Below, piece by piece: positions 46,921-57,126 of a stretch of DNA of 64,000 nt (its first letter is position 1; each line of letters begins with the position of its first letter). Location: positions 1,472,001 through 1,536,000 of the forward strand of contig OY762654.1 of assembly GCA_963666205.1 (NCBI GenBank), given 5' to 3'. The notes beneath the pieces are model-generated. The model searched no databases. It saw only the letters and a list, made by a program, of their open reading frames with translations, and had not been told where the DNA came from. Origin of the DNA: Synergistales bacterium. Its GTDB lineage: Bacteria; Synergistota; Synergistia; Synergistales; JAFGMB01. Made by a program: the position numbers and the translations under genes.

Positions 46921-48117
46921 TTATCTCGACGAGAGATATTCCCTTCTGTACCAGTCGATATACCAGTTAAGGAATTGCCTGTGTTTTTCTCTGCTCTCCG
47001 GTAAAATATTTACAGCCAGTTCATACATTCTATCCCACATATTCCTGCTTGCTATAGGAATAGACAGACTGGAGAGGTTTTCCCTGATCACTTCGATGAA
47101 AGGCTCAGGAACAGGGAAGCCCCAATCTGAAGGATCTTCGCCATGAATCAACAGCGATACGATCCCTCTTAAACATTTTTCACAAAGGGCACAGTTCTTT
47201 ACAGCGTTACCACTCATGCTATCCAGACAGACCCTCATAAAAAGCTTATCCTTTCCCGGGTTGTCCCTGCAAAAATTTATTATGAATTGGACTTTGTCCA
47301 CCCAGAAAGAATTCATTCCTTCCGCAAATACCCTGATACCGCTAACTTTAAGCCTTGGTTCAAGAAAAGGATGGGCTCCCCATGGCACATTATATGACAC
47401 TTTCTTCGCTACAGAAGAGGAGAAAATAACTGTATTCCAACCATTAAAAACAGCAAGAGGAAAAGCCAGTCCTGCTAATCCAAGTCCATGCTGCACCATT
47501 CCATACCATGGTTTGAGAACGGGATATTTTTTATGTATATCTCCACACCGCAGAAGTCCAAAGACATTTGCGCTTACCCTGATCGACCTGAAAGTAAACC
47601 GGGAGGCAAAAGAATCCACCTGGCTACAGACGGTCTCCCATGCCAGGTCATTATTCAGTGCAATGTCGTGACCGCGTACGGTAAGAAGCACAGTTTTGCC
47701 GGGATCGACATTGAGAGCCGAATAGGTGGAATCCACCCCTCCTGAAAAGAAAAGTACCTGGGACAGGTCTGTCGTATTTTCTCTCATGGGGACAGAAGTT
47801 AAAGTTTCAGGAATAAGCCGGCCCTCCCATGGAACATTCGGATAAAGGGTCCGAAATCCTTCCCGGACCAGTTCAAGGCTGGAAAAAAGATCCTTATCCA
47901 TAAAATCCACCTTATATGTTCCGCCAAGAAACCAGAGAAGGGGAATTACATTCAGCAGAAAAGGTGTGATGACTATTGAAGGATGCAGTTCCCGGAGGTC
48001 AATATCTGCATCGTATTCTATGGTTAAAGGCTGTCTCATTCTTTTAATCAGTGGATCCCCCTGAAAGACTGTAGCTTTTTTCTCGCTTATATCAATATGG
48101 GAAATAATATTATCCAT
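46921..48117 (-). CDS. PP-loop (QueC-like) ATPase-fold protein, paralog 3
   Basis: FFSGGVDS; C-terminal RVC...NCxxCEKC. Confidence 0.7.
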   Translation of the reverse strand: MDNIISHIDISEKKATVFQGDPLIKRMRQPLTIEYDADIDLRELHPSIVITPFLLNVIPLLWFLGGTYKVDFMDKDLFSSLELVREGFRTLYPNVPWEGRLIPETLTSVPMRENTTDLSQVLFFSGGVDSTYSALNVDPGKTVLLTVRGHDIALNNDLAWETVCSQVDSFASRFTFRSIRVSANVFGLLRCGDIHKKYPVLKPWYGMVQHGLGLAGLAFPLAVFNGWNTVIFSSSVAKKVSYNVPWGAHPFLEPRLKVSGIRVFAEGMNSFWVDKVQFIINFCRDNPGKDKLFMRVCLDSMSGNAVKNCALCEKCLRGIVSLLIHGEDPSDWGFPVPEPFIEVIRENLSSLSIPIASRNMWDRMYELAVNILPESREKHRQFLNWYIDWYRREYLSSR

Positions 48118-48191
48118 TCTCGATCAAGTTCTCCTATTGTATAACTGCTCTCTGATTCCCAACCTTTCAGGCAAAAGAATTACAGATAATT

Positions 48192-49439
48192 TTAGCTACT
48201 GGCCTTGCTGGATGAACAAGGATAAATTTTCTCCGTCTGAAAAATGTACTTCTTTTCGTACCAGTTCGTAAACCAGTTGATGAATTCTCTATGTTCTCCC
48301 CTGATTTCCGGAAAAGCCGACAAAACCTGTAGGGCCACCTTGTGGATGCGGTCCCAGATATATTTGTTAGATCGTGGAATAGTCATGGTTAAAAGACAGT
48401 TCTTCAGGCTGTTGAATACAGGATCCGGGACAGGAAAGCCCCAGTCAGAAGGATCTTCAAACTTGATCATCAATGAAACTATCCCTCTTAAACATTTCTC
48501 ACAAAGAGTGCAGTTCCCTATTGCATTTCCATTCATGTCATCCAGACATATTCTCAAAAAAGGCCTTGCCACTCCTGGATTACTGCTGAAAAAATCGACA
48601 ATGGCCAGAACTTTATCGACCCAGAATAGCTCTGTTCCCTCTGAAATAACCTTAACTCCATTAACTTTAAGCCTGGGTTCAAGAAAAGGATGGGATCCCC
48701 AGGGAACATGGGTAACCTGCTCTCCGACGGAAGAAGAAAAAATGACATTATCCCAGCTGTTATAAACAGCAAGAGGGAAAGCCAGCCCCGCTAATCCCGA
48801 CCCATGTTGAACCATTCCATACCATGGTTTTAAAACGGGGTATTCTTTATGTATATCTCCACATCGTAAAAGGCGGAACACGTTAGCCCTTACCCTGGCG
48901 GTTCTGAAATTGAAGGCGGAGGCAAAGCTGTTCACATGGGAACATACTGTATCCCATGCCAGGTCATTATTCATGGCAATATCGTGACCACGTACGGTCA
49001 GAAGGACCGTTTTGCCAGGGTCAACATTGAGAGCCGAATAAGTAGAATCTACTCCTCCTGAAAAGAAAAGAACCTGGGACAGGTCTGTGTTATTTTTTCT
49101 CCTGGGAACAGAAGTTAAAGTATCAGGAACAAGCCGGCCTTCCCAGGGAACATTCGGATAAAGGGTCCTGAAGCCTTCCTTGATCTGTTCCAGAGTACTG
49201 AACATGTCTTCATCCATGGAATTTACTGTACAGGTTCCACCAAGAAACCAGAGAAGGGGAATTACATTAAGCAGAAAGGGGGTGATCACTATTGAAGGAT
49301 CCAGTTCCCGGAGGTCAATATCTGCATCGTACTCTATTGTGAAGGGCTGTCTCATCCGCTCAGCAAGAGGAGTTCCCGGAAATACTGTGGCTTTTTTCTC
49401 GCTTACATCAATGTTGGTAATAATGTTATTTATTCTCAA
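48192..49439 (-). CDS. PP-loop (QueC-like) ATPase-fold protein, paralog 2
   Basis: Same motifs; TTG start. Confidence 0.7.
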   Translation of the reverse strand: MRINNIITNIDVSEKKATVFPGTPLAERMRQPFTIEYDADIDLRELDPSIVITPFLLNVIPLLWFLGGTCTVNSMDEDMFSTLEQIKEGFRTLYPNVPWEGRLVPDTLTSVPRRKNNTDLSQVLFFSGGVDSTYSALNVDPGKTVLLTVRGHDIAMNNDLAWDTVCSHVNSFASAFNFRTARVRANVFRLLRCGDIHKEYPVLKPWYGMVQHGSGLAGLAFPLAVYNSWDNVIFSSSVGEQVTHVPWGSHPFLEPRLKVNGVKVISEGTELFWVDKVLAIVDFFSSNPGVARPFLRICLDDMNGNAIGNCTLCEKCLRGIVSLMIKFEDPSDWGFPVPDPVFNSLKNCLLTMTIPRSNKYIWDRIHKVALQVLSAFPEIRGEHREFINWFTNWYEKKYIFQTEKIYPCSSSKASS

Positions 49440-49545
49440 TAAATTTTCCTGCCTGTATCTCAGATATATAGTCTCTATGGTTCACTAATGATGAATAACC
49501 TTCATTACAGTTTCCCTCTTAACAAAACCGATCATGTCTTCGTAC

Positions 49546-50739
49546 TTAAATTATATATTGATTTTCATACCAATTAACAAACCAGTTGAAGAACTGTCTG
49601 TATTCTCCTCTACTTTCCGTTAAAGCTCTTGAAGCCAGAGCATGGATGCGATCCCACTCATATATATTGAACTCGGGAATTGTCATATATAACAGAGAGT
49701 TCTGTACAGCACCAAATAAGGGACTCTCCACAGAAAATCCCCATTCTGAAGGATCCTCAGACCTTACCATAAGGGAAACGATCCCCCTCAGACATTTCTC
49801 ACAAAGGGTGCAATTCTTGACAGGATTGCCGTTCATGTCATCCAGACAGGTTCTAATAAAAGGTTTATTCATCTCCGGATTATTCCTGTAAAAATCGACA
49901 ATGCCTAATACTTTGTCAGCCCATAAAAGTTCATTACCCTCTGATATCACCTTAATACCATTCGCTTTGAGCCTTGGTTCAAGAAAGGGGTGAGATCCCC
50001 AGGAAACATGGGTTGTTTTTTCATCTATAGATGAAGAAAATATTATTCTTTCCCAACCATGATAAACAGACAGGGGAAAGGCCAGACCCGCTAATCCCGA
50101 CCCATGTTGAACCATTCCATACCATGGTTTCAATTCAGGGTGTTCCTTGTGTATATCTCCACATCTTAAAAGTCCAAAAACATTTGCACTGGCCCTCGCA
50201 GTCCTGAAGTTAAAAGTTGAGGCAAAATCGTTCACCTGTGAACATACTGTTTTCCAGGCTTTGTCATTATTCAGTGCTATATCATGACCTCGTATTGTAA
50301 GAAGTACCGTTTTGCCGGGATCGACATTGAGAGCAGAATAGGTGGAATCCACCCCTCCTGAAAAGAAAAGTACCTGGGACAGGTCTGTGTTATTTTTTCT
50401 CCTGGGAACAGAAATTAAAGTTTCCGGAATAAGCTGGCCTTTCCAGGGTATATTCGGATAAAGGATTCGGAATCCATTCCGAACGAGCTCAAGGCTGGAG
50501 AAAAGATCCTCATCCATGGAATCCACCTTATATGTTCCACCCAGAAACCAGAGAAGGGGAATAACATTGAGGAGAAAGGGAGTTATAACAATCGAGAGAT
50601 CCAGTTCCCGGAGGTCAATATCTGCATCGTACTCTATTGTGAAGGGCTGTCTCATCCGCTCAGCAAGAGGAGTTCCCGGAAATACTGTGGCTTTTTTCTC
50701 GCTTACATCAATGTTGGAAATAATGTTAGACAGATTCAA
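49546..50739 (-). CDS. PP-loop (QueC-like) ATPase-fold protein, paralog 1
   Basis: TTG at 50739 with GGAG SD aligns with the starts of the other paralogs. Confidence 0.7.
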   Translation of the reverse strand: MNLSNIISNIDVSEKKATVFPGTPLAERMRQPFTIEYDADIDLRELDLSIVITPFLLNVIPLLWFLGGTYKVDSMDEDLFSSLELVRNGFRILYPNIPWKGQLIPETLISVPRRKNNTDLSQVLFFSGGVDSTYSALNVDPGKTVLLTIRGHDIALNNDKAWKTVCSQVNDFASTFNFRTARASANVFGLLRCGDIHKEHPELKPWYGMVQHGSGLAGLAFPLSVYHGWERIIFSSSIDEKTTHVSWGSHPFLEPRLKANGIKVISEGNELLWADKVLGIVDFYRNNPEMNKPFIRTCLDDMNGNPVKNCTLCEKCLRGIVSLMVRSEDPSEWGFSVESPLFGAVQNSLLYMTIPEFNIYEWDRIHALASRALTESRGEYRQFFNWFVNWYENQYII

Positions 50740-50927
50740 AGAATGTTTCTCTCCATTTCTTGATATCACAGGATGAGACTTTTTTCTGCAGTAAACATGA
50801 ATTATTATTATAATATATGAAATTCCGGCAGTACAAGCTGAGACAAACACCAGGTCCGGAGTAAGAATATCCCTGTAATTGTCCTTGGCAAGTATAAATG
50901 CTTCTGACAATTGAGAAAAGCGAGTGA

Positions 50928-52106
50928 TGGACCATTCTGGATATAAAAGATGTTGAAAAGGAACCACGTTCCCCTTCTCCTGAAATCTCCGTTGATAAAG
51001 ATTTTCTTTCCCGTAAGGATTGGGGAAAAATTCTTCTCTCTGCATGGGAAAAAACCTTTTCAGGACGCAGGATCAACATAGCTGATGATTTTTTTGACCT
51101 TGTAGGGACCGATTCTGCAGCCGTTCTCGGGATCAGGATGAGGAAACATATGGAAGAGATCTCAGGAAGGGATTTCTACCTTTCTCTTCTTTTTGAAAAT
51201 CCTACAATTGAAAGTCTTTCTTCGGCACTTGAACAACGGCAACAGGGCCCTGAAAAATGGCCAACCCTCGTGAAGATCAAGGATGGAGATGAAGCCTTTC
51301 CTCTCTTCTGCTGCCATCCCATAGAGGGGAATGCCATCTGGTATATGGAAATGGCAAGGGCACTGCCTTCATGGCAAAAGGTATATGGACTGGAAGCACC
51401 TGGTCTGGATAAAGTGCAGTTTCCCCTTTTCACCATGGAGGATCTGGCTGTATTCCATATTAAGGAAATGAAGAAGGTGCAACCCCATGGCCCATATTTT
51501 CTAACCGGTTATTCCTTTGGGGGCCTTTTAGCATTTGAAGTGGCCCGCCAACTTGAATGCTCAGGAGATAATGTAGGGTTACTGGCTATTATTGACCGGT
51601 CAAAACCTGTGGCCGCCCCTAAAATAGCGGGTGGAGCGATCTGTCCTGCTGAATTAGCCTGCGAAAGGGGAACTTCTTTTTCGGACCGCTTCCATTCTCA
51701 CTGGTACTGGACCAATAAATGGATAAGAATGGAGTTCCGGAAATCTCTGGCTTCCTTTATGCGGATTTTTAATCCCAGGATTCCCTTCATGCGAAAAATA
51801 ATGAGGGATGTTTCATATTTTATGATGATGTTATATCAACCAGCTTCTGTTTATAAGGGTGATATTCTCCTGTTACGCCAGGAACCGGAGAAGAGACCCT
51901 CTAACAGACAGGCAGAACGCTATAATCGGGAAGACTACGGATGGAGCGATCATGTCTGTGGCAAAATACAGATAAGGCATATCCCGGGAGAAGATCATCA
52001 GGGTCTTATGAACAGACCCTATGCTGCCGTTATATCTTCAATGATCGAGGAAGCCCTGGAAGACGCCAGAGACAGATATTGCCAAAAGTCAGATCCAAGA
52101 GAATAA
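50928..52106 (+). CDS. Carrier-protein (PCP/ACP)-thioesterase didomain protein; start codon uncertain
   Basis: Frame open from 50928 contains W...DDFFDLVGTDS...LFENPTI; thioesterase GYSFGG and C-terminal His (GEDH). Confidence 0.75.
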   Translation, partial: WTILDIKDVEKEPRSPSPEISVDKDFLSRKDWGKILLSAWEKTFSGRRINIADDFFDLVGTDSAAVLGIRMRKHMEEISGRDFYLSLLFENPTIESLSSALEQRQQGPEKWPTLVKIKDGDEAFPLFCCHPIEGNAIWYMEMARALPSWQKVYGLEAPGLDKVQFPLFTMEDLAVFHIKEMKKVQPHGPYFLTGYSFGGLLAFEVARQLECSGDNVGLLAIIDRSKPVAAPKIAGGAICPAELACERGTSFSDRFHSHWYWTNKWIRMEFRKSLASFMRIFNPRIPFMRKIMRDVSYFMMMLYQPASVYKGDILLLRQEPEKRPSNRQAERYNREDYGWSDHVCGKIQIRHIPGEDHQGLMNRPYAAVISSMIEEALEDARDRYCQKSDPRE

Positions 52107-52179
52107 TTCATTACTCAAAGTGAATAATCAATAATAAAAATAAACAGAAGGGCCGATCTAACCTGGCCTTACTGTAATT

Positions 52180-52470
52180 TTAAGAACATTCCCCACAGGA
52201 GGTACAATCACCCGGACAGCTGGTATGTCCTTCTTCAAGGTCAGCCAGGACAGGAAGATAAAGATCCAGGATCTCCTGGATGTCTCCTGCACATCAGGTC
52301 CCGGAAGGATTCATTACCGGGCAGTTATCTCCGGTACAGGCTCCGGTGATCCTCTTTATATCCTCAAGGGTGCGTGCCCCATCTATGGTTATGGCTGAAA
52401 GGATCTGCATCTTGTTGACATTCTTGCAATAACAGACTGTTGCGGCGCCGCCTTTTTCAAGCCATGACAT
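52180..52470 (-). CDS. BFD-like [2Fe-2S]-binding protein, probable selenoprotein (TGA 52296-52294), 96 aa
   Basis: VCYC...TGAC....C...NPSGT-U-C, then 37 more codons ending CPGDCTSCGECS; SD; SECIS-like hairpin. Confidence 0.8.
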
Positions 52471-52927
52471 TAATGTTTTCCCCCTGTCTTACAGTTCCGT
52501 GTTCATTTATGAATTGCTCTACGGCTGCCCTTATCTGGTCTCTGACGATCCTGGACCTGGCAACCATTTCATCCCATTTCCCTGTGAAGGCTCCTATATC
52601 CTCAAAAGGCCAGTCGATCTTTTCATGCTGCCCCGGGAATATGGGACACCTGGCGGATTTGGCCTCATCACATACAGCTATTACATAATCGTATGTCCTG
52701 CCCTCTTCGAAGAATTCCATTATACCGTTAACTTTGTTAGCGGAAATGTCGACATCGATCTCCTTCATTACTTCCACGGCAAGGGGGTTTACTCCCGGAC
52801 CCGGCTCAAGGCCGGCACTCTCGGCTTCGAAACACTCTCCGCCCAGCATGTTCATGAAAGCTTCACCTATCTGGCTTCGAGCCGAATTCTGTCCACATAT
52901 GAATAATACACGAATTTTATCACTCAT
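52457..52927 (-). CDS. arsC: Arsenate reductase (LMW-PTP fold)
   Basis: CGQNSARS, SAG, VC......CP.FPG, WPFED; AGGAGG SD. Confidence 0.88.
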   Translation of the reverse strand: MSDKIRVLFICGQNSARSQIGEAFMNMLGGECFEAESAGLEPGPGVNPLAVEVMKEIDVDISANKVNGIMEFFEEGRTYDYVIAVCDEAKSARCPIFPGQHEKIDWPFEDIGAFTGKWDEMVARSRIVRDQIRAAVEQFINEHGTVRQGENINVMA

Positions 52928-52979: not shown

Positions 52980-55115
52980 TCAAGCTTGTGTAACAATACC
53001 CATTCTGATAGTCCGGGCAGAGTTCAGAACAGCCAGAAGTGCCACACCAACATCGGCGAACACTGCTTCCCAAAGCCCCGATATGCCGGCCAGGCCAAGA
53101 ATAAGGACTAACCCTTTAACTCCAAGGGCAAGGCTTATATTCTGCCAGACTATCCTCCTGGTCTGCCTGGCTATGGATATAGCATCTGCCACTTCTGAAG
53201 GTCTGTCGCTCAGGATAACCAGGTCAGCTGTTTCAACGGCTGCAGCTGAACCCAGTCCACCCATTGCTACTCCGACATCGGCGGCAGCAAGGGAGGGAGC
53301 ATCATTAATGCCATCCCCTGCAAAGAGGACCTTTCCTCCGATTTTGTTTCGGATGTTCTTTACCTGTTCGACCTTTTCGTGGGGAAGGAGTTCCGCCCTG
53401 TAATCGTCTATTTCCAGAGCTGCAGATACGGTTGTTGCAACTCCATACCTGTCGCCTGTAAGCATCTGTATCGTCCTGATCCCCATCTCTTTCAGTTTTC
53501 TTACCGCAAGGGGAGCATCTTCGCGGATCACATCAGAAACGACAAGGTAACCCTGATATCTATCATCCAGGGCAGCATGTACCACCGTACCTCCTTCTTC
53601 GACATGGGGTACCACTATACCCCTGTTTTCAAGAAGGGCTGCTTTCCCAGCGAGTATGAAATGGCCATTTTCTTCTGCTCGAACACCCTCGCCAGGGATC
53701 TCTTCCATCTCAATATTTATTGATGCCGGTTTCTTACCATAGGCTTTCATTACTGAACGGGCAATAGGGTGATTAGAGTTCATCTCAGCCATTGCTACGG
53801 TTGTCAGAAGCTCCTCGGGAGTCACCCCGGCAACCGGCCGCAGTGAAGTCACGTTAAATACCCCTTCTGTTAAAGTTCCCGTCTTGTCAAAGATAACTGA
53901 AGTCACCTCAGTAAGGGCATCCAGAACGTTACCTCCTTTTACAAGGAGACCATGTCTGGATGCAGCGCCTATTCCTCCGAAGTATCCCAGGGGAATACTT
54001 ACCATAAGGGCACAGGGACAGGATATTATCAGCAACACCAGAGCTCGATATATCCAGGAAGAAAATGAACCATACCCCATAAACGGGGGAAGAAGGGCTA
54101 CAAGAACCGCCAGGGTAACAACCGCAGGTGTATAATAACGGGCAAACTTTGTGATAAACCTTTCAGTGGGGGACTTCTGTGCAACTGCAAATTCGACCAG
54201 TTCAAGGATCCGGGCAATGGCGCTCTCCTTATATGGCGATGTAACCCGGATCTTAAGGACTCCCGTGAGGTTGAGACTTCCTCCATAAAGGGAGTGCCCA
54301 ACGCCTGCTGAGACAGGTACAGGTTCTCCCGTCAGGGGGGATGTATCCACATGGGAAGATCCTGTGAGCACCATTCCATCCAGAGGGATCTTCTCTCCCG
54401 GTTTTACTATCAGCATATCTCCGGGATTAACAGTGTCCGGAGAAACATTTATGATCTGATTCCCTTTGAGAAGGTTTGCGAAGGCCGGTTTTGATGCAAG
54501 CAGTGATTTTATGGATTTTCTGGAATTTGAGGCTGCCACATCCTGAAAGAATTCACCGACCCGGTAAAAGAGCATGACCCCCACGGCCTCTCCGAAGAAC
54601 CCAAGGGCAATAGCCGCAAAAGTGGCAAGGGTCATGAGGAAGAACTCGTCAAAAAGATGTCCCCGAATGACGTTCCTGAAAGCAGATTTAATAACACTCA
54701 GGCCACAGATAAGGTAGGCCGAGAGGAACACGGAATAGTAACCCAGGGAATAAGGAGTGGCTTTCAATTTCTCCCCAAAGACTATCCCTCCCATAAAGAG
54801 CAGCCCTGCAAGAAGGAGTTTCTTTATTTCGGGAAGGTTCTCCCTGTTAAAAATCGCTGACATGATACTCCCTTGCCCGGGAACAGCAGGAGTCATATTC
54901 TCTTCAGTAAGGATCTCCTCCACTTCCACATCCGGCTCTATCTTTTGGATAACCTGCAATATGGTTTCGAGGCCTATCTCTTCCCCATACATATTCAGAA
55001 GGGACTCGTCAAAATCTATGGATACCCCGCTGACACCGGGAAGACTCCCGAGAACCTGTTCCATCGTAGCGGCACAGCCTCGACACCCAAGATTGATCAA
55101 TCGATATTGTTTCAT
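52980..55115 (-). CDS. cadA: Heavy-metal P1B-type ATPase (Cd/Zn/Pb)
   Basis: N-terminal CxxC HMA, TGE, CPC, DKTGT, HP, GDGINDAP. Confidence 0.88.
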   Translation of the reverse strand: MKQYRLINLGCRGCAATMEQVLGSLPGVSGVSIDFDESLLNMYGEEIGLETILQVIQKIEPDVEVEEILTEENMTPAVPGQGSIMSAIFNRENLPEIKKLLLAGLLFMGGIVFGEKLKATPYSLGYYSVFLSAYLICGLSVIKSAFRNVIRGHLFDEFFLMTLATFAAIALGFFGEAVGVMLFYRVGEFFQDVAASNSRKSIKSLLASKPAFANLLKGNQIINVSPDTVNPGDMLIVKPGEKIPLDGMVLTGSSHVDTSPLTGEPVPVSAGVGHSLYGGSLNLTGVLKIRVTSPYKESAIARILELVEFAVAQKSPTERFITKFARYYTPAVVTLAVLVALLPPFMGYGSFSSWIYRALVLLIISCPCALMVSIPLGYFGGIGAASRHGLLVKGGNVLDALTEVTSVIFDKTGTLTEGVFNVTSLRPVAGVTPEELLTTVAMAEMNSNHPIARSVMKAYGKKPASINIEMEEIPGEGVRAEENGHFILAGKAALLENRGIVVPHVEEGGTVVHAALDDRYQGYLVVSDVIREDAPLAVRKLKEMGIRTIQMLTGDRYGVATTVSAALEIDDYRAELLPHEKVEQVKNIRNKIGGKVLFAGDGINDAPSLAAADVGVAMGGLGSAAAVETADLVILSDRPSEVADAISIARQTRRIVWQNISLALGVKGLVLILGLAGISGLWEAVFADVGVALLAVLNSARTIRMGIVTQA

Positions 55116-55161: not shown

Positions 55162-56328
55162 TTAACCCGCCATCAGACCGAATATGGTCCCTGCCAGAGT
55201 TGAAAGAACTACCACAAGACTGACATAGACCACGGTTTTTTTCGTTCCGATAACGCTCCTTATGACAAGCATGTTGGGTAGGGAAAGAGCCGGACCGGCC
55301 AGTAGAAGAGCCAATGCCGGCCCTTTACCCATCCCTGCACCAAGAAGACCCTGGAGAATAGGCACCTCCGTAAGAGTTGCAAAATACATGAAAGCACCGG
55401 CAATGGAAGCAAAGAAATTAGAAAAGATCGAATTACCTCCCACAAGGGATGCGACCCACTGGCTTGGGATCAATGCTTCGTGGCCGGGTCTTCCCAGAAG
55501 AAAACCTGCGACCAGAACTCCGCCAAAAAGAAGGGGAAGTACCTGAAGGGCATATCCCCAGGTAGAACTCATCCATTCCTGTCTTTCTTCTTTGGAGAAC
55601 CATATAACTGTTGAAGCCGCTACGGAGACAAGAGCAGCCGCGGCTATATACCACTTAATCGAATAAGCCGCCGCCCAGAAACCCACCGGCACCTTTGGTG
55701 CTGCCCAGTTGGCAAAGACAAGAAAGACAACCATGCTGGCCATGTGCCACACTGTTTTCCAAAGGGGACGGGTATTATCATCTTCTTCGATCCGGGCAAA
55801 ACCTGCCTGACGTTCCCTTTCCTCATGACGGAAGATAAAGGCCATGGATATACCGATGATAACGCTGAAGGCAATAGCCCCCACAGCCCTTGCAATACCC
55901 ATCTCCAGACCGAGGACACGGGCTGTCAGTATTATGGCAAGAACATTTATGGCCGGTCCGGAATAAAGAAAAGCTGAGGCCGGGCCAAGTCCTGCTCCCC
56001 GCATGTAGATACCTGCAAAAAGAGGAAGAACTGTACAGGAGCAGACAGCGAGTATCGTACCTGAGACGGCGGCAACACTGTAGGCGACCATCTTCTTTGC
56101 TCCGGCTCCAAGATACTTCATCACCGACTGTTGACTTACGAATACCGTAATGGCTCCAGCTATGAAAAATGCCGGGACAAGACACAAAAGAACGTGCTGA
56201 CGGGCATACTCGTGAGTCATGGCAAGAGCTTCAAGGGCACCACTGCTTATCCTTGTACTCTCAACGGGAAGAAAATAGAAAAGGGCAAAGAAAAGAAATA
56301 TATACAGGAACTTCTTTCTGTCTTCCAT
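55162..56328 (-). CDS. ArsP/DUF318-family permease
   Basis: AVCSCTVLP, FLYSGPAIN, MYFATLTEVP, GPALSLP. Confidence 0.85.
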   Translation of the reverse strand: MEDRKKFLYIFLFFALFYFLPVESTRISSGALEALAMTHEYARQHVLLCLVPAFFIAGAITVFVSQQSVMKYLGAGAKKMVAYSVAAVSGTILAVCSCTVLPLFAGIYMRGAGLGPASAFLYSGPAINVLAIILTARVLGLEMGIARAVGAIAFSVIIGISMAFIFRHEERERQAGFARIEEDDNTRPLWKTVWHMASMVVFLVFANWAAPKVPVGFWAAAYSIKWYIAAAALVSVAASTVIWFSKEERQEWMSSTWGYALQVLPLLFGGVLVAGFLLGRPGHEALIPSQWVASLVGGNSIFSNFFASIAGAFMYFATLTEVPILQGLLGAGMGKGPALALLLAGPALSLPNMLVIRSVIGTKKTVVYVSLVVVLSTLAGTIFGLMAG

Positions 56329-56446: not shown

Positions 56447-56680
56447 CTACTTCGACAGCAATTCCTTCATTCTATCTTCAGTCGGGATTTTCCCGGCCAC
56501 TACCACTTTTCCGTCAATTACAAGACCAGGGGTGGACATTACACCGAACTGCATTATATCCACTATCTCCGTAACTTTCTCAAGTTCATAATCTATACCG
56601 AGATCTTTAGCTGCTTTCTCTGCCACCTCGGCCATTTTCTTACACTTTGCACATCCTGTACCAAGAATCTGTATTTTCAT
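56447..56680 (-). CDS. Small redox-active disulfide protein (thioredoxin-like)
   Basis: MKIQILGTGCAKC...GVMSTPGLVIDG. Confidence 0.88.
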   Translation of the reverse strand: MKIQILGTGCAKCKKMAEVAEKAAKDLGIDYELEKVTEIVDIMQFGVMSTPGLVIDGKVVVAGKIPTEDRMKELLSK

Positions 56681-56796: not shown

Positions 56797-57126
56797 TTAT
56801 TCCTTACTGCTACAGCTGCATGTCAGCAACGAAGTTAGAGGCTCTTCTCCCTGCACCACAAGTTCAACACATTTAAGAAGGGTAGTCAGGCACTTCATTC
56901 TGAGGCTGTAATAAATATGAAGGCCATCCCTTCGGTCATCAAGAATATCAAGATTTTTCATGAGAGTCAGGTGTTTGCTTATGCTGGTCCTGTCAAGGGT
57001 AAACTTCTCGGCTATGTCACAGACACACATTTCGCCGCCTGCAAGAACCTCAACAATTCCAAGACGTACCGGATGGGCCAGTCCCTTAAGTATGGCTGCC
57101 TTTTTTTTCTGTATCTGATCACTCAT
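56797..57126 (-). CDS. ArsR/SmtB family repressor
   Basis: KGLAHPVRL, EMCVC, ISKHL, YYSL. Confidence 0.9.
   Translation of the reverse strand: MSDQIQKKKAAILKGLAHPVRLGIVEVLAGGEMCVCDIAEKFTLDRTSISKHLTLMKNLDILDDRRDGLHIYYSLRMKCLTTLLKCVELVVQGEEPLTSLLTCSCSSKE

Follow-up and report, generated by a model that had tools for sequence, protein, structure and literature searches.

A likely selenocysteine codon in a CopZ-like BFD protein gene at the end of an ars/cad operon in Synergistota

The window analysed here is a stretch of 64,000 nucleotides from a Synergistales genome, and it contains an ars/cad operon whose last gene has a TGA in frame. The question is whether this codon is read as selenocysteine (Sec) and, if so, what the residue might do in a protein of such an operon. 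The minus-strand translation of 52470-52180 gives MSWLEKGG...NPSGT-TGA-CAGDIQEILD...CPGDCTSCGECS-stop, which has 96 codons, a single TGA, the motif G57-T58-U59-C60 at the Sec site and a TAA stop codon. The frame overlaps the final 14 nt of arsC (52457-52470). The initial annotation had described a 96-aa frame with an overlap with the arsC stop, an AGGGGG Shine-Dalgarno sequence and an internal TGA, and all of these features are present; it left the strand unstated, which is the minus strand (Table 1). A plus-strand frame at the same coordinates was rejected, as its translation differs from the protein described. The gene had also been called unannotated, for which truncated is the better word: the protein collection contains 58-aa calls that end at the UGA. 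Sequencing error was rejected as the source of the TGA, since the stop is kept in a genome of the same genus (G001), in six clustered 58-aa calls and in diverged contigs. Correcting the truncated call adds one more member to a catalogued, never-characterised selenoprotein subfamily.

Table 1 Features of the operon and of its last gene, in window positions
Feature	Position	Strand	Basis
Stand-alone CopZ-like BFD [2Fe-2S] protein (predicted), 96-codon gene with GTUC motif and Cys-rich tail	52180..52470	-	Pfam Fer2_BFD 31.9 bits (cut-off 26)
In-frame TGA, codon 59, likely selenocysteine	52294..52296	-	Cys in homologues; TGA kept in relatives
SECIS-like upper stem-loop, 7 bp, loop AGAT at +19	52264..52281	-	Identical in G001; also flagged terminator-like
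Cys-rich tail C85/C89/C92/C95, predicted second metal site	52186..52218	-	All four Cys kept in 4 same-family orthologue loci
Shine-Dalgarno-like AGGGGG, inside the end of arsC	52480..52485	-	9 nt before ATG
Possible operon terminator, a hairpin directly after the stop codon where two genes converge	52149..52170	.	Consensus match only
ArsC-like LMW-PTP-fold reductase, conserved C11, C86, C94	52457..52927	-	Best TIGR02691, 96.7 bits, below cut-off 174.3
CadA-type P1B ATPase, N-terminal CxxC and SCPC motif	52980..55115	-	TIGR01512, 501.8 bits (cut-off 313.5)
ArsP_1 (DUF318) permease	55162..56328	-	252.8 bits (cut-off 32.3)
MTH895/ArsE-family thioredoxin-like protein (CAKC)	56447..56680	-	TIGR00412, 107.8 bits (cut-off 62)
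ArsR/SmtB repressor, MCVCD box and C-terminal Cys	56797..57126	-	NF033788, 79.3 bits (cut-off 55)

Judging from sequence comparisons, it is highly probable that the codon-59 UGA of the 96-codon gene is read as Sec, because orthologues have Cys at the TGA and the TGA is kept in diverged relatives. The machinery for Sec is present in the genome: selA, selB and selD score above curated cut-offs, and a tRNA-Sec with anticodon UCA was found (profile and tRNA searches). The selD gene has a TGA of its own. The initial annotation had named an absence of selABCD and a lack of conservation past the TGA as grounds for giving up the selenoprotein call; all four genes are found (selC being the tRNA-Sec gene), and the codons past the TGA evolve under constraint, with mostly silent changes relative to G001. 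It had also expected Cys at the TGA in an alignment with BFD-like and CopZ-type proteins. We aligned 157 rows, made up of 150 representatives, 6 close homologues and the query, in which U was written as C. Cys stands at the TGA in 144 of them, which together with the Sec machinery supports the call. The next column (C60) is Cys in 148 rows, and the columns of C13, C15 and C50 are Cys in 152, 151 and 155 rows, respectively. The closest full-length homologues, at 71-84% identity, have K-C-C at the Sec site.

The gene of G001 has a TGA at the same codon. Over the 37 codons past the UGA, the two copies have 18 identical, 12 synonymous and 7 changed codons, which is similar to the 58 codons before it (37 identical, 15 synonymous and 6 changed). 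Nor does the TGA change in four diverged contigs, two of them from the public run X15 and one each from X8 and X16 (X4, which is identical to this copy, was left out of the count), and the stretch of 44 nt that follows the TGA is nearly invariant across diverged contigs. The two X15 contigs have one listed difference each within 52256-52299, and one of these makes a G-C pair of the stem G-U. Contigs from RNA libraries of relatives span the gene, which is no gauge of the transcript or its level.

A phylum-wide search covered 268 genomes, and 62 loci were scored, picked for the strength of the match or for an internal TGA. The TGA lies at the codon-59 column in 17 of the 62 loci, from several families, and 35 of the 62 have CC. 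Every searched genome with a TGA at this column has selA; of 34 genomes checked, 33 have it, and the one miss is a genome of 65% completeness. The residue before the Sec in the 17 UC loci is Thr (14 loci), Gly (2) or Ser (1) and never Arg or Lys, whereas Arg or Lys dominate before CC, where Thr occurs at 0 of 35 loci. The Thr before Sec suggests that separate origins share a constraint of codon context or structure. A single origin of Sec at this column was rejected by an AU test of one clade (p-AU 1.1e-51; 8 UC rows among 27, on a quick tree with the site masked). In a quick tree, a well-supported family clade contains a small group made up of the Sec copies (this gene, G001 and P0007), and the six remaining members of that clade have Cys. 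Cys-coding relatives with selA include G002 and G004, with whole genes, and G003, with a fragment. The simplest reading of these sequences would be a recent Sec gain in this genus, one of several flips, as judged from trees that are quick, short and unrooted (that of 84 rows having few columns) and weigh gain against loss without a root.

The initial annotation had pointed to the hairpin ATCCAGG-AGAT-CCTGGAT after the UGA, and it is present at 52281-52264, with a loop that begins 19 nt past the UGA and has G as its second position. An extended lower stem is predicted over 52290-52250. We took the SECIS consensus from section 5 of PMC13188914: a loop of 3-9 nt located 16-37 nt from the UGA, G in the first two loop positions, a stem of 4-16 bp and a stability of -7.5 kcal/mol or better. 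The codon-59 hairpin fits this consensus, so the SECIS prediction that had been proposed as a check is positive, with a low specificity, as 135 of 803 control ORFs (TGA-ended, at least 200 aa, same genome) also pass. Of the 803 control ORFs, 12 pass with a hairpin of -9.2 kcal/mol or better, and an exhaustive scorer found 21 of 803 at -9.7 or better, in a control set that may include a few true selenoproteins and terminators. Only 4 of 500 synonymous recodings of the peptide equal the stability of the hairpin. When compared with shuffles, the 52-nt fold is unexceptional for this copy (z -1.34; 18/200 as good) and exceptional for the G001 copy (z -5.17).

The stem is a near-palindromic coding of the peptide I-Q-E-I-L-D, which to a large extent dictates the hairpin. 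A Cys-coding orthologue, L007 (2439-2490), has 6 of the 7 stem pairs in the same place, at +19, and the hairpin is absent from two more distant Cys orthologues. The lower stem is longer in both Sec copies (-17.5 and -23.5 vs -13.9 kcal/mol). Because L007 already has most of the pairs, the hairpin is weak evidence by itself, although supportive. The near-hairpin of L007 may be a pre-adaptation or a relic of a lost Sec, and its presence in a Cys-coding relative suggests that a coding-region SECIS can arise almost free. The AGAT loop is without the usual G-[G/U], whereas the loops of SelD (GGC), GrdB (GGT) and a paralogue described below (GTT) show it. The GrdA genes of this genome have poor hairpins by the same test; with these low scores and the many control ORFs that pass, the SECIS model is loose both ways. 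We note that 5 T occur within 8 nt just past the codon-59 hairpin, which was flagged terminator-like.

The AlphaFold model of the protein has a confident core (mean pLDDT 89.6) and a tail of low confidence (pLDDT 52-58). In Foldseek, the best match is the N-terminal domain of A. fulgidus CopZ (CopZ-NT, 2HU9) with an E value of 0.011, and no match falls below 0.001. In VIA, P. aeruginosa Bfd (PDB 4E6K, 6E6R) comes first, with the same fold on the predicted model (Z 9.0, rmsd 1.3 Å, 57 of 57 residues on model residues 10-76), and 2HU9 has a Z of 5.9. A PDB sequence search also gives 2HU9 as the best match (E 1.1e-5; 8.9e-12 in a profile search). Saposin matches in the PDB sequence search were rejected, since they cover the helix and tail only and are absent from the profile search. 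The BFD-like fold proposed in the initial annotation is consistent with the Pfam match above its cut-off and with the Foldseek and VIA matches of the predicted model.

Going by its sequence, the GTUC gene belongs to a known predicted family, the CopZ-family (2Fe-2S)-binding selenoprotein form 1, which has WP_245779778.1 as its representative. Selenoprotein catalogues have an entry "(2Fe-2S)-binding protein (CopZ family) form 1, GxUC" for this predicted subfamily (PMC13188914 Table 1; PMC9312934). As these listings cover the GxUC form of the BFD domain, the family is not a new one. The features of form 1 are found here: a CopZ-like domain (cd10141, by proxy of the Fer2_BFD and 2HU9 matches) and GxUC with one Sec, in this case G-T-U-C. 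Form 1 itself is predicted, and its function is uncharacterised. The four-Cys tail, the ars/cad setting and a separate Sec origin in the genus are additions to what the listings give for form 1. In the 2008 paper to which form 1 is traced (PMC2398784), 2Fe-2S does not occur in the text available, nor do 2Fe-2S, BFD or CopZ in four supplements. A supplement of PMC5029168 lists 12 such selenoproteins in 11 organisms, and the same paper names Synergistetes as selenoprotein-rich; the supplement search of PMC13326102 gave no match.

Other known systems are less close. The best NCBIfam match is NF045877 (Csac_0668 family, form 2), with an E value of 1.6e-15 over profile positions 99-158 of 161. The score of 57.4 bits lies below the cut-off of 190, this protein lacks the N-terminal part, and the motif is UC here and CU in form 2. 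The protein shares the pattern CYC...C-x3-NPSGxCC with the N-terminal domain of A. fulgidus CopZ, with Sec at the position of Cys118. Unlike that protein, it has no zf_CopZ zinc domain and no CxxC copper domain, it adds the Cys-rich tail, and its setting is ars/cad and not cop. Likewise, it scores 26.1 bits, with no zf_CopZ match, against NF047645, the CopZ-type metallochaperone with zinc and Fe-S domains, which takes a score of at least 100. The zf_CopZ domain is found in many longer homologues.

The operon runs arsR, trx, arsP, cadA, arsC and, last, the bfd-like gene, all on the same strand with gaps of ~45-120 nt and the last pair overlapping. The whole gene order is kept in G001 and G002, and arsC is directly upstream of the bfd-like gene in 4 of 4 same-family loci, in agreement with the end-of-operon position and the arsC synteny put forward in the initial annotation. 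The operon is presumably under the control of ArsR. A promoter scan of the region was near chance (9 found vs 6.9 expected), and 9 terminator-consensus hairpins were found vs 5.5 expected. The spacing of the tail is C85-x3-C89-x2-C92-x2-C95, and the tail may form a second metal site. Markers of ars/cad genes lie within 3 kb at 20 of the 22 CC or UC loci with a Cys-bearing tail and at 3 of the 30 without one; these counts exclude 10 loci with other or unparsed motifs (markers are near 24 of the 62 loci overall) and come from queries mostly from this operon, from kin that are not independent and from loci of which several have flanks shorter than 3 kb. The initial annotation had placed a selenoprotein in an ArsR-controlled arsenic/cadmium operon. 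A special tie of Sec to arsenic operons is not supported, as only 3 of the 17 UC loci have ars/cad neighbours and the remaining 14 have mixed neighbours: the operon association goes with the tail and not with selenium. A specialist would not be surprised by the pairing of Sec and arsenic in any case, since selenoproteins in arsenic and mercury resistance settings have already been reviewed (PMC13188914, section 7). The literature search, in the material accessible to it, found no paper on BFD-like proteins in ars operons. An Acr3 arsenite exporter is encoded elsewhere in the genome (G000:C1:1927314-1928489, plus strand), far from the ars/cad operon.

We propose that the protein is a redox-active metal or metalloid chaperone for the exporters of the operon, a mechanism that, taken as a whole, we hold to have an even chance of being right. 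Its first two steps, which amount to a selenoprotein of this family with the gene, UGA, machinery, BFD fold and ligands described here, are very likely correct. In step 1, SelB-dependent read-through of the codon-59 UGA would give the 96-aa protein. In step 2, the BFD fold would hold a [2Fe-2S] cluster through C13, C15, C50 and C60, with U59 free beside it. In step 3, the flexible four-Cys tail, helped by U59, may bind As(III) or Cd/Zn and deliver it to ArsP or CadA. ArsD is an arsenite metallochaperone that captures its cargo by thiols and hands it over in ars operons, and the likeness to it lies in the proposed job and in one natural BFD-ArsD fusion; this is an analogy and not membership, as the protein has no ArsD match in Pfam or NCBIfam. 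The cluster may also supply electrons to the bound metal or maintain the thiols in the reduced state, by analogy with the Fe-S domain of A. fulgidus CopZ, which mediates Cu(II) reduction according to a review (PMC7558416). In step 4, Sec would be a recent lineage-level swap of Cys, as the tree suggests, that tunes the protein and leaves its job unchanged. Sec incorporation, the cluster and metal binding are all predicted for the 96-aa protein. The substrate is uncertain because ArsC scores below the NCBIfam cut-offs and ArsP_1-type permeases also match Cu/Zn exporters. With the chaperone reading, the catalogued family gains a concrete lead to its function, namely the export of metals or metalloids in connection with the Cys-rich tail. 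A Cys orthologue of 84% identity allows a clean Sec-vs-Cys comparison.

The selenoprotein could also serve ArsC and the thioredoxin-like protein as a redox partner or one-electron carrier, with a tail that binds structural Zn or a second Fe-S cluster in place of cargo. This would fit the overlap of the gene start with arsC, the arsC gene directly upstream in all four same-family loci, the electron carrier Bfd as the closest fold match and the tail spacing, which is fixed within the family. Fusions were seen among 44 longer homologues scanned (BFD-ArsC, BFD-ArsD and ArsM-BFD, each a single sequence on one contig); all three favour the chaperone, and the first of them also favours a redox partner of ArsC. 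When longer fused forms were sought, zf_CopZ proteins were the only outcome (17 of 7992 scored), which is weak evidence. Against the carrier role, most tail-bearing relatives adjoin acr3, arsP or cadA, and an arsC marker is within 3 kb at 6 of the 22 tail-bearing loci; the three Cys of ArsC are those of a thioredoxin-coupled enzyme, and the operon includes a thioredoxin-like gene; and the number of tail Cys varies from 1 to 5 across families. We consider the carrier role rather unlikely and keep the chaperone as the working model.

The role of Sec in such a chaperone depends on which of the adjacent residues 59 and 60 binds the cluster. By sequence alignment, C13, C15, C50, U59 and C60 correspond to C75, C77, C109, C118 and C119 of 2HU9, in which we assume the cluster ligand to be C119 and not C118. 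The Cys of Bfd are C4, C6, C38 and C41, which we take to be the cluster ligands. C41 falls on model C60, provided that the last helix is gapless (Bfd residue 57 on model residue 76); the last ligand pair is C-x2-C in Bfd and C50-x9-C60 here, and the adjacent Cys/Sec and the tail are extra in this protein. From the model, the predicted ligands are C13, C15, C50 and C60, and U59 is likely to be a free selenolate beside the cluster and not a ligand. The initial annotation had proposed Sec as a cluster ligand, and the structural register with Bfd speaks against this, pointing to C60 as the fourth ligand and U59 as its neighbour. A direct ligand role of Sec59 is improbable: conservation at position 59 comes close to that at position 60 (144 vs 148 of 157), and the register argument presumes a gapless helix and the ligand numbers assumed for 2HU9, but S or G at position 59 (7 rows) is more frequent than replacement at position 60 (3 rows of the 157-row alignment, a small bias), and Sec and Cys at position 59 flip repeatedly. 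U59 may yet serve as a ligand of a second, exchangeable metal.

Two further readings fare worse than those above. A general oxidant-sensing or Fe-S housekeeping selenoprotein that merely travels with a metal operon would suit the 14 of 17 UC loci with no ars/cad marker nearby and the paralogue that precedes 4Fe-4S membrane-protein genes, but this is very improbable, as the tail-bearing clade stays with ars/cad genes across differing gene orders and exporters. The least probable is a true stop at the UGA (through a nonsense mutation in a single genus, or with 58 aa as the true product; the hairpin would be a by-product or weak terminator): gene callers end there, the hairpin with its T-rich flank is terminator-like and is partly present in a Cys-coding orthologue, but C60 and the last helix would be lost, the downstream codons are under constraint, and the same TGA recurs in several families, with selA in every such genome searched.

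The paralogue (G000:C1:2350789-2350529, minus strand; locus L062:6290-6030) is a degenerate BFD-like gene that has lost the CxC motif and ends in GGCGGG-TGA-AGCSGSC, and the G001 copy is alike. Its hairpin has 7 bp and a GTT loop at +19 and spans the stop codon, whereas the hairpin is missing from the counterparts in G002 and G004, where Cys takes the place of the TGA. By its sequence, the paralogue is likely a second selenoprotein. Other BFD-like genes have a TGA 2-11 codons before the next stop: L020, L048, L049, L050 and L116 (all family f6); L037; L112 and L123; L113 and L114; L120 and L121; L053; and L061. The f6 genes lie in arsR-bfd-acr3 operons, with a 6-7 bp hairpin wholly past the stop codon and its loop at +25. 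When 32 loci were classed by eye, 16 had such a tail TGA followed by a short extension; 13 of these 16 have a hairpin whose loop starts with G and which reaches -5 kcal/mol or better, vs 1 of the 16 others and 53 of 803 background ends. Tail TGAs without a later Cys (NCG-U-KK, GGG-U-SA) are possibly real stops with a terminator. The convincing forms, as sequences go, are those in which the TGA has a Cys counterpart and is followed by a conserved Cys (CT-U-GGNC, CG-U-GNC and GGG-U-AGC). No NCBIfam model is above its cut-off for three of these, and the 119-entry selenoprotein catalogue table, as available, has no tail-Sec form of this kind. C-terminal Sec motifs are catalogued in other families (UXX-star, KCU-star, SaoC). 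Tentatively, the tail-bearing CopZ-like BFD proteins of Synergistota may be an unrecognised arsenic/cadmium chaperone family that has recruited Sec repeatedly at two sites, beside the cluster, as in this gene, and in a C-terminal Gly/Cys tail with a SECIS overlapping or past the stop codon, as in the paralogue and in the relatives from arsR-bfd-acr3 operons. If true, close Cys/Sec orthologue pairs make the contribution of Sec to metalloid binding testable.

Several observations concern the surroundings of these genes. In the window, a lone thioesterase-domain gene (51138-52106) on the opposite strand precedes three tandem paralogous ORFs (46921-51045, minus strand) of ~400-500 aa with an FFSGGVDS motif and conserved Cys; there was no Pfam match in the one scanned. 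In one f4 genus, a UC-type BFD domain is fused behind TfoX_N (L056:5873-6358, minus strand; the Pfam match is shown for L056), and similar long N-terminal frames occur in L094, L095, L101-L103 and L105, while one member, L111, has CC. P0113 and P0130 have a DF-family (seleno)protein domain (NF049942) fused with the BFD domain, above the cut-off in P0113 only. Elsewhere in the genome, a gene that we take to be rhodanese-like has tandem in-frame TGAs at G000:C1:1272818 and 1272171 (minus strand) in YCA-U-PxE context, each with a 6-bp hairpin at +22, and these are likely further selenoprotein codons.
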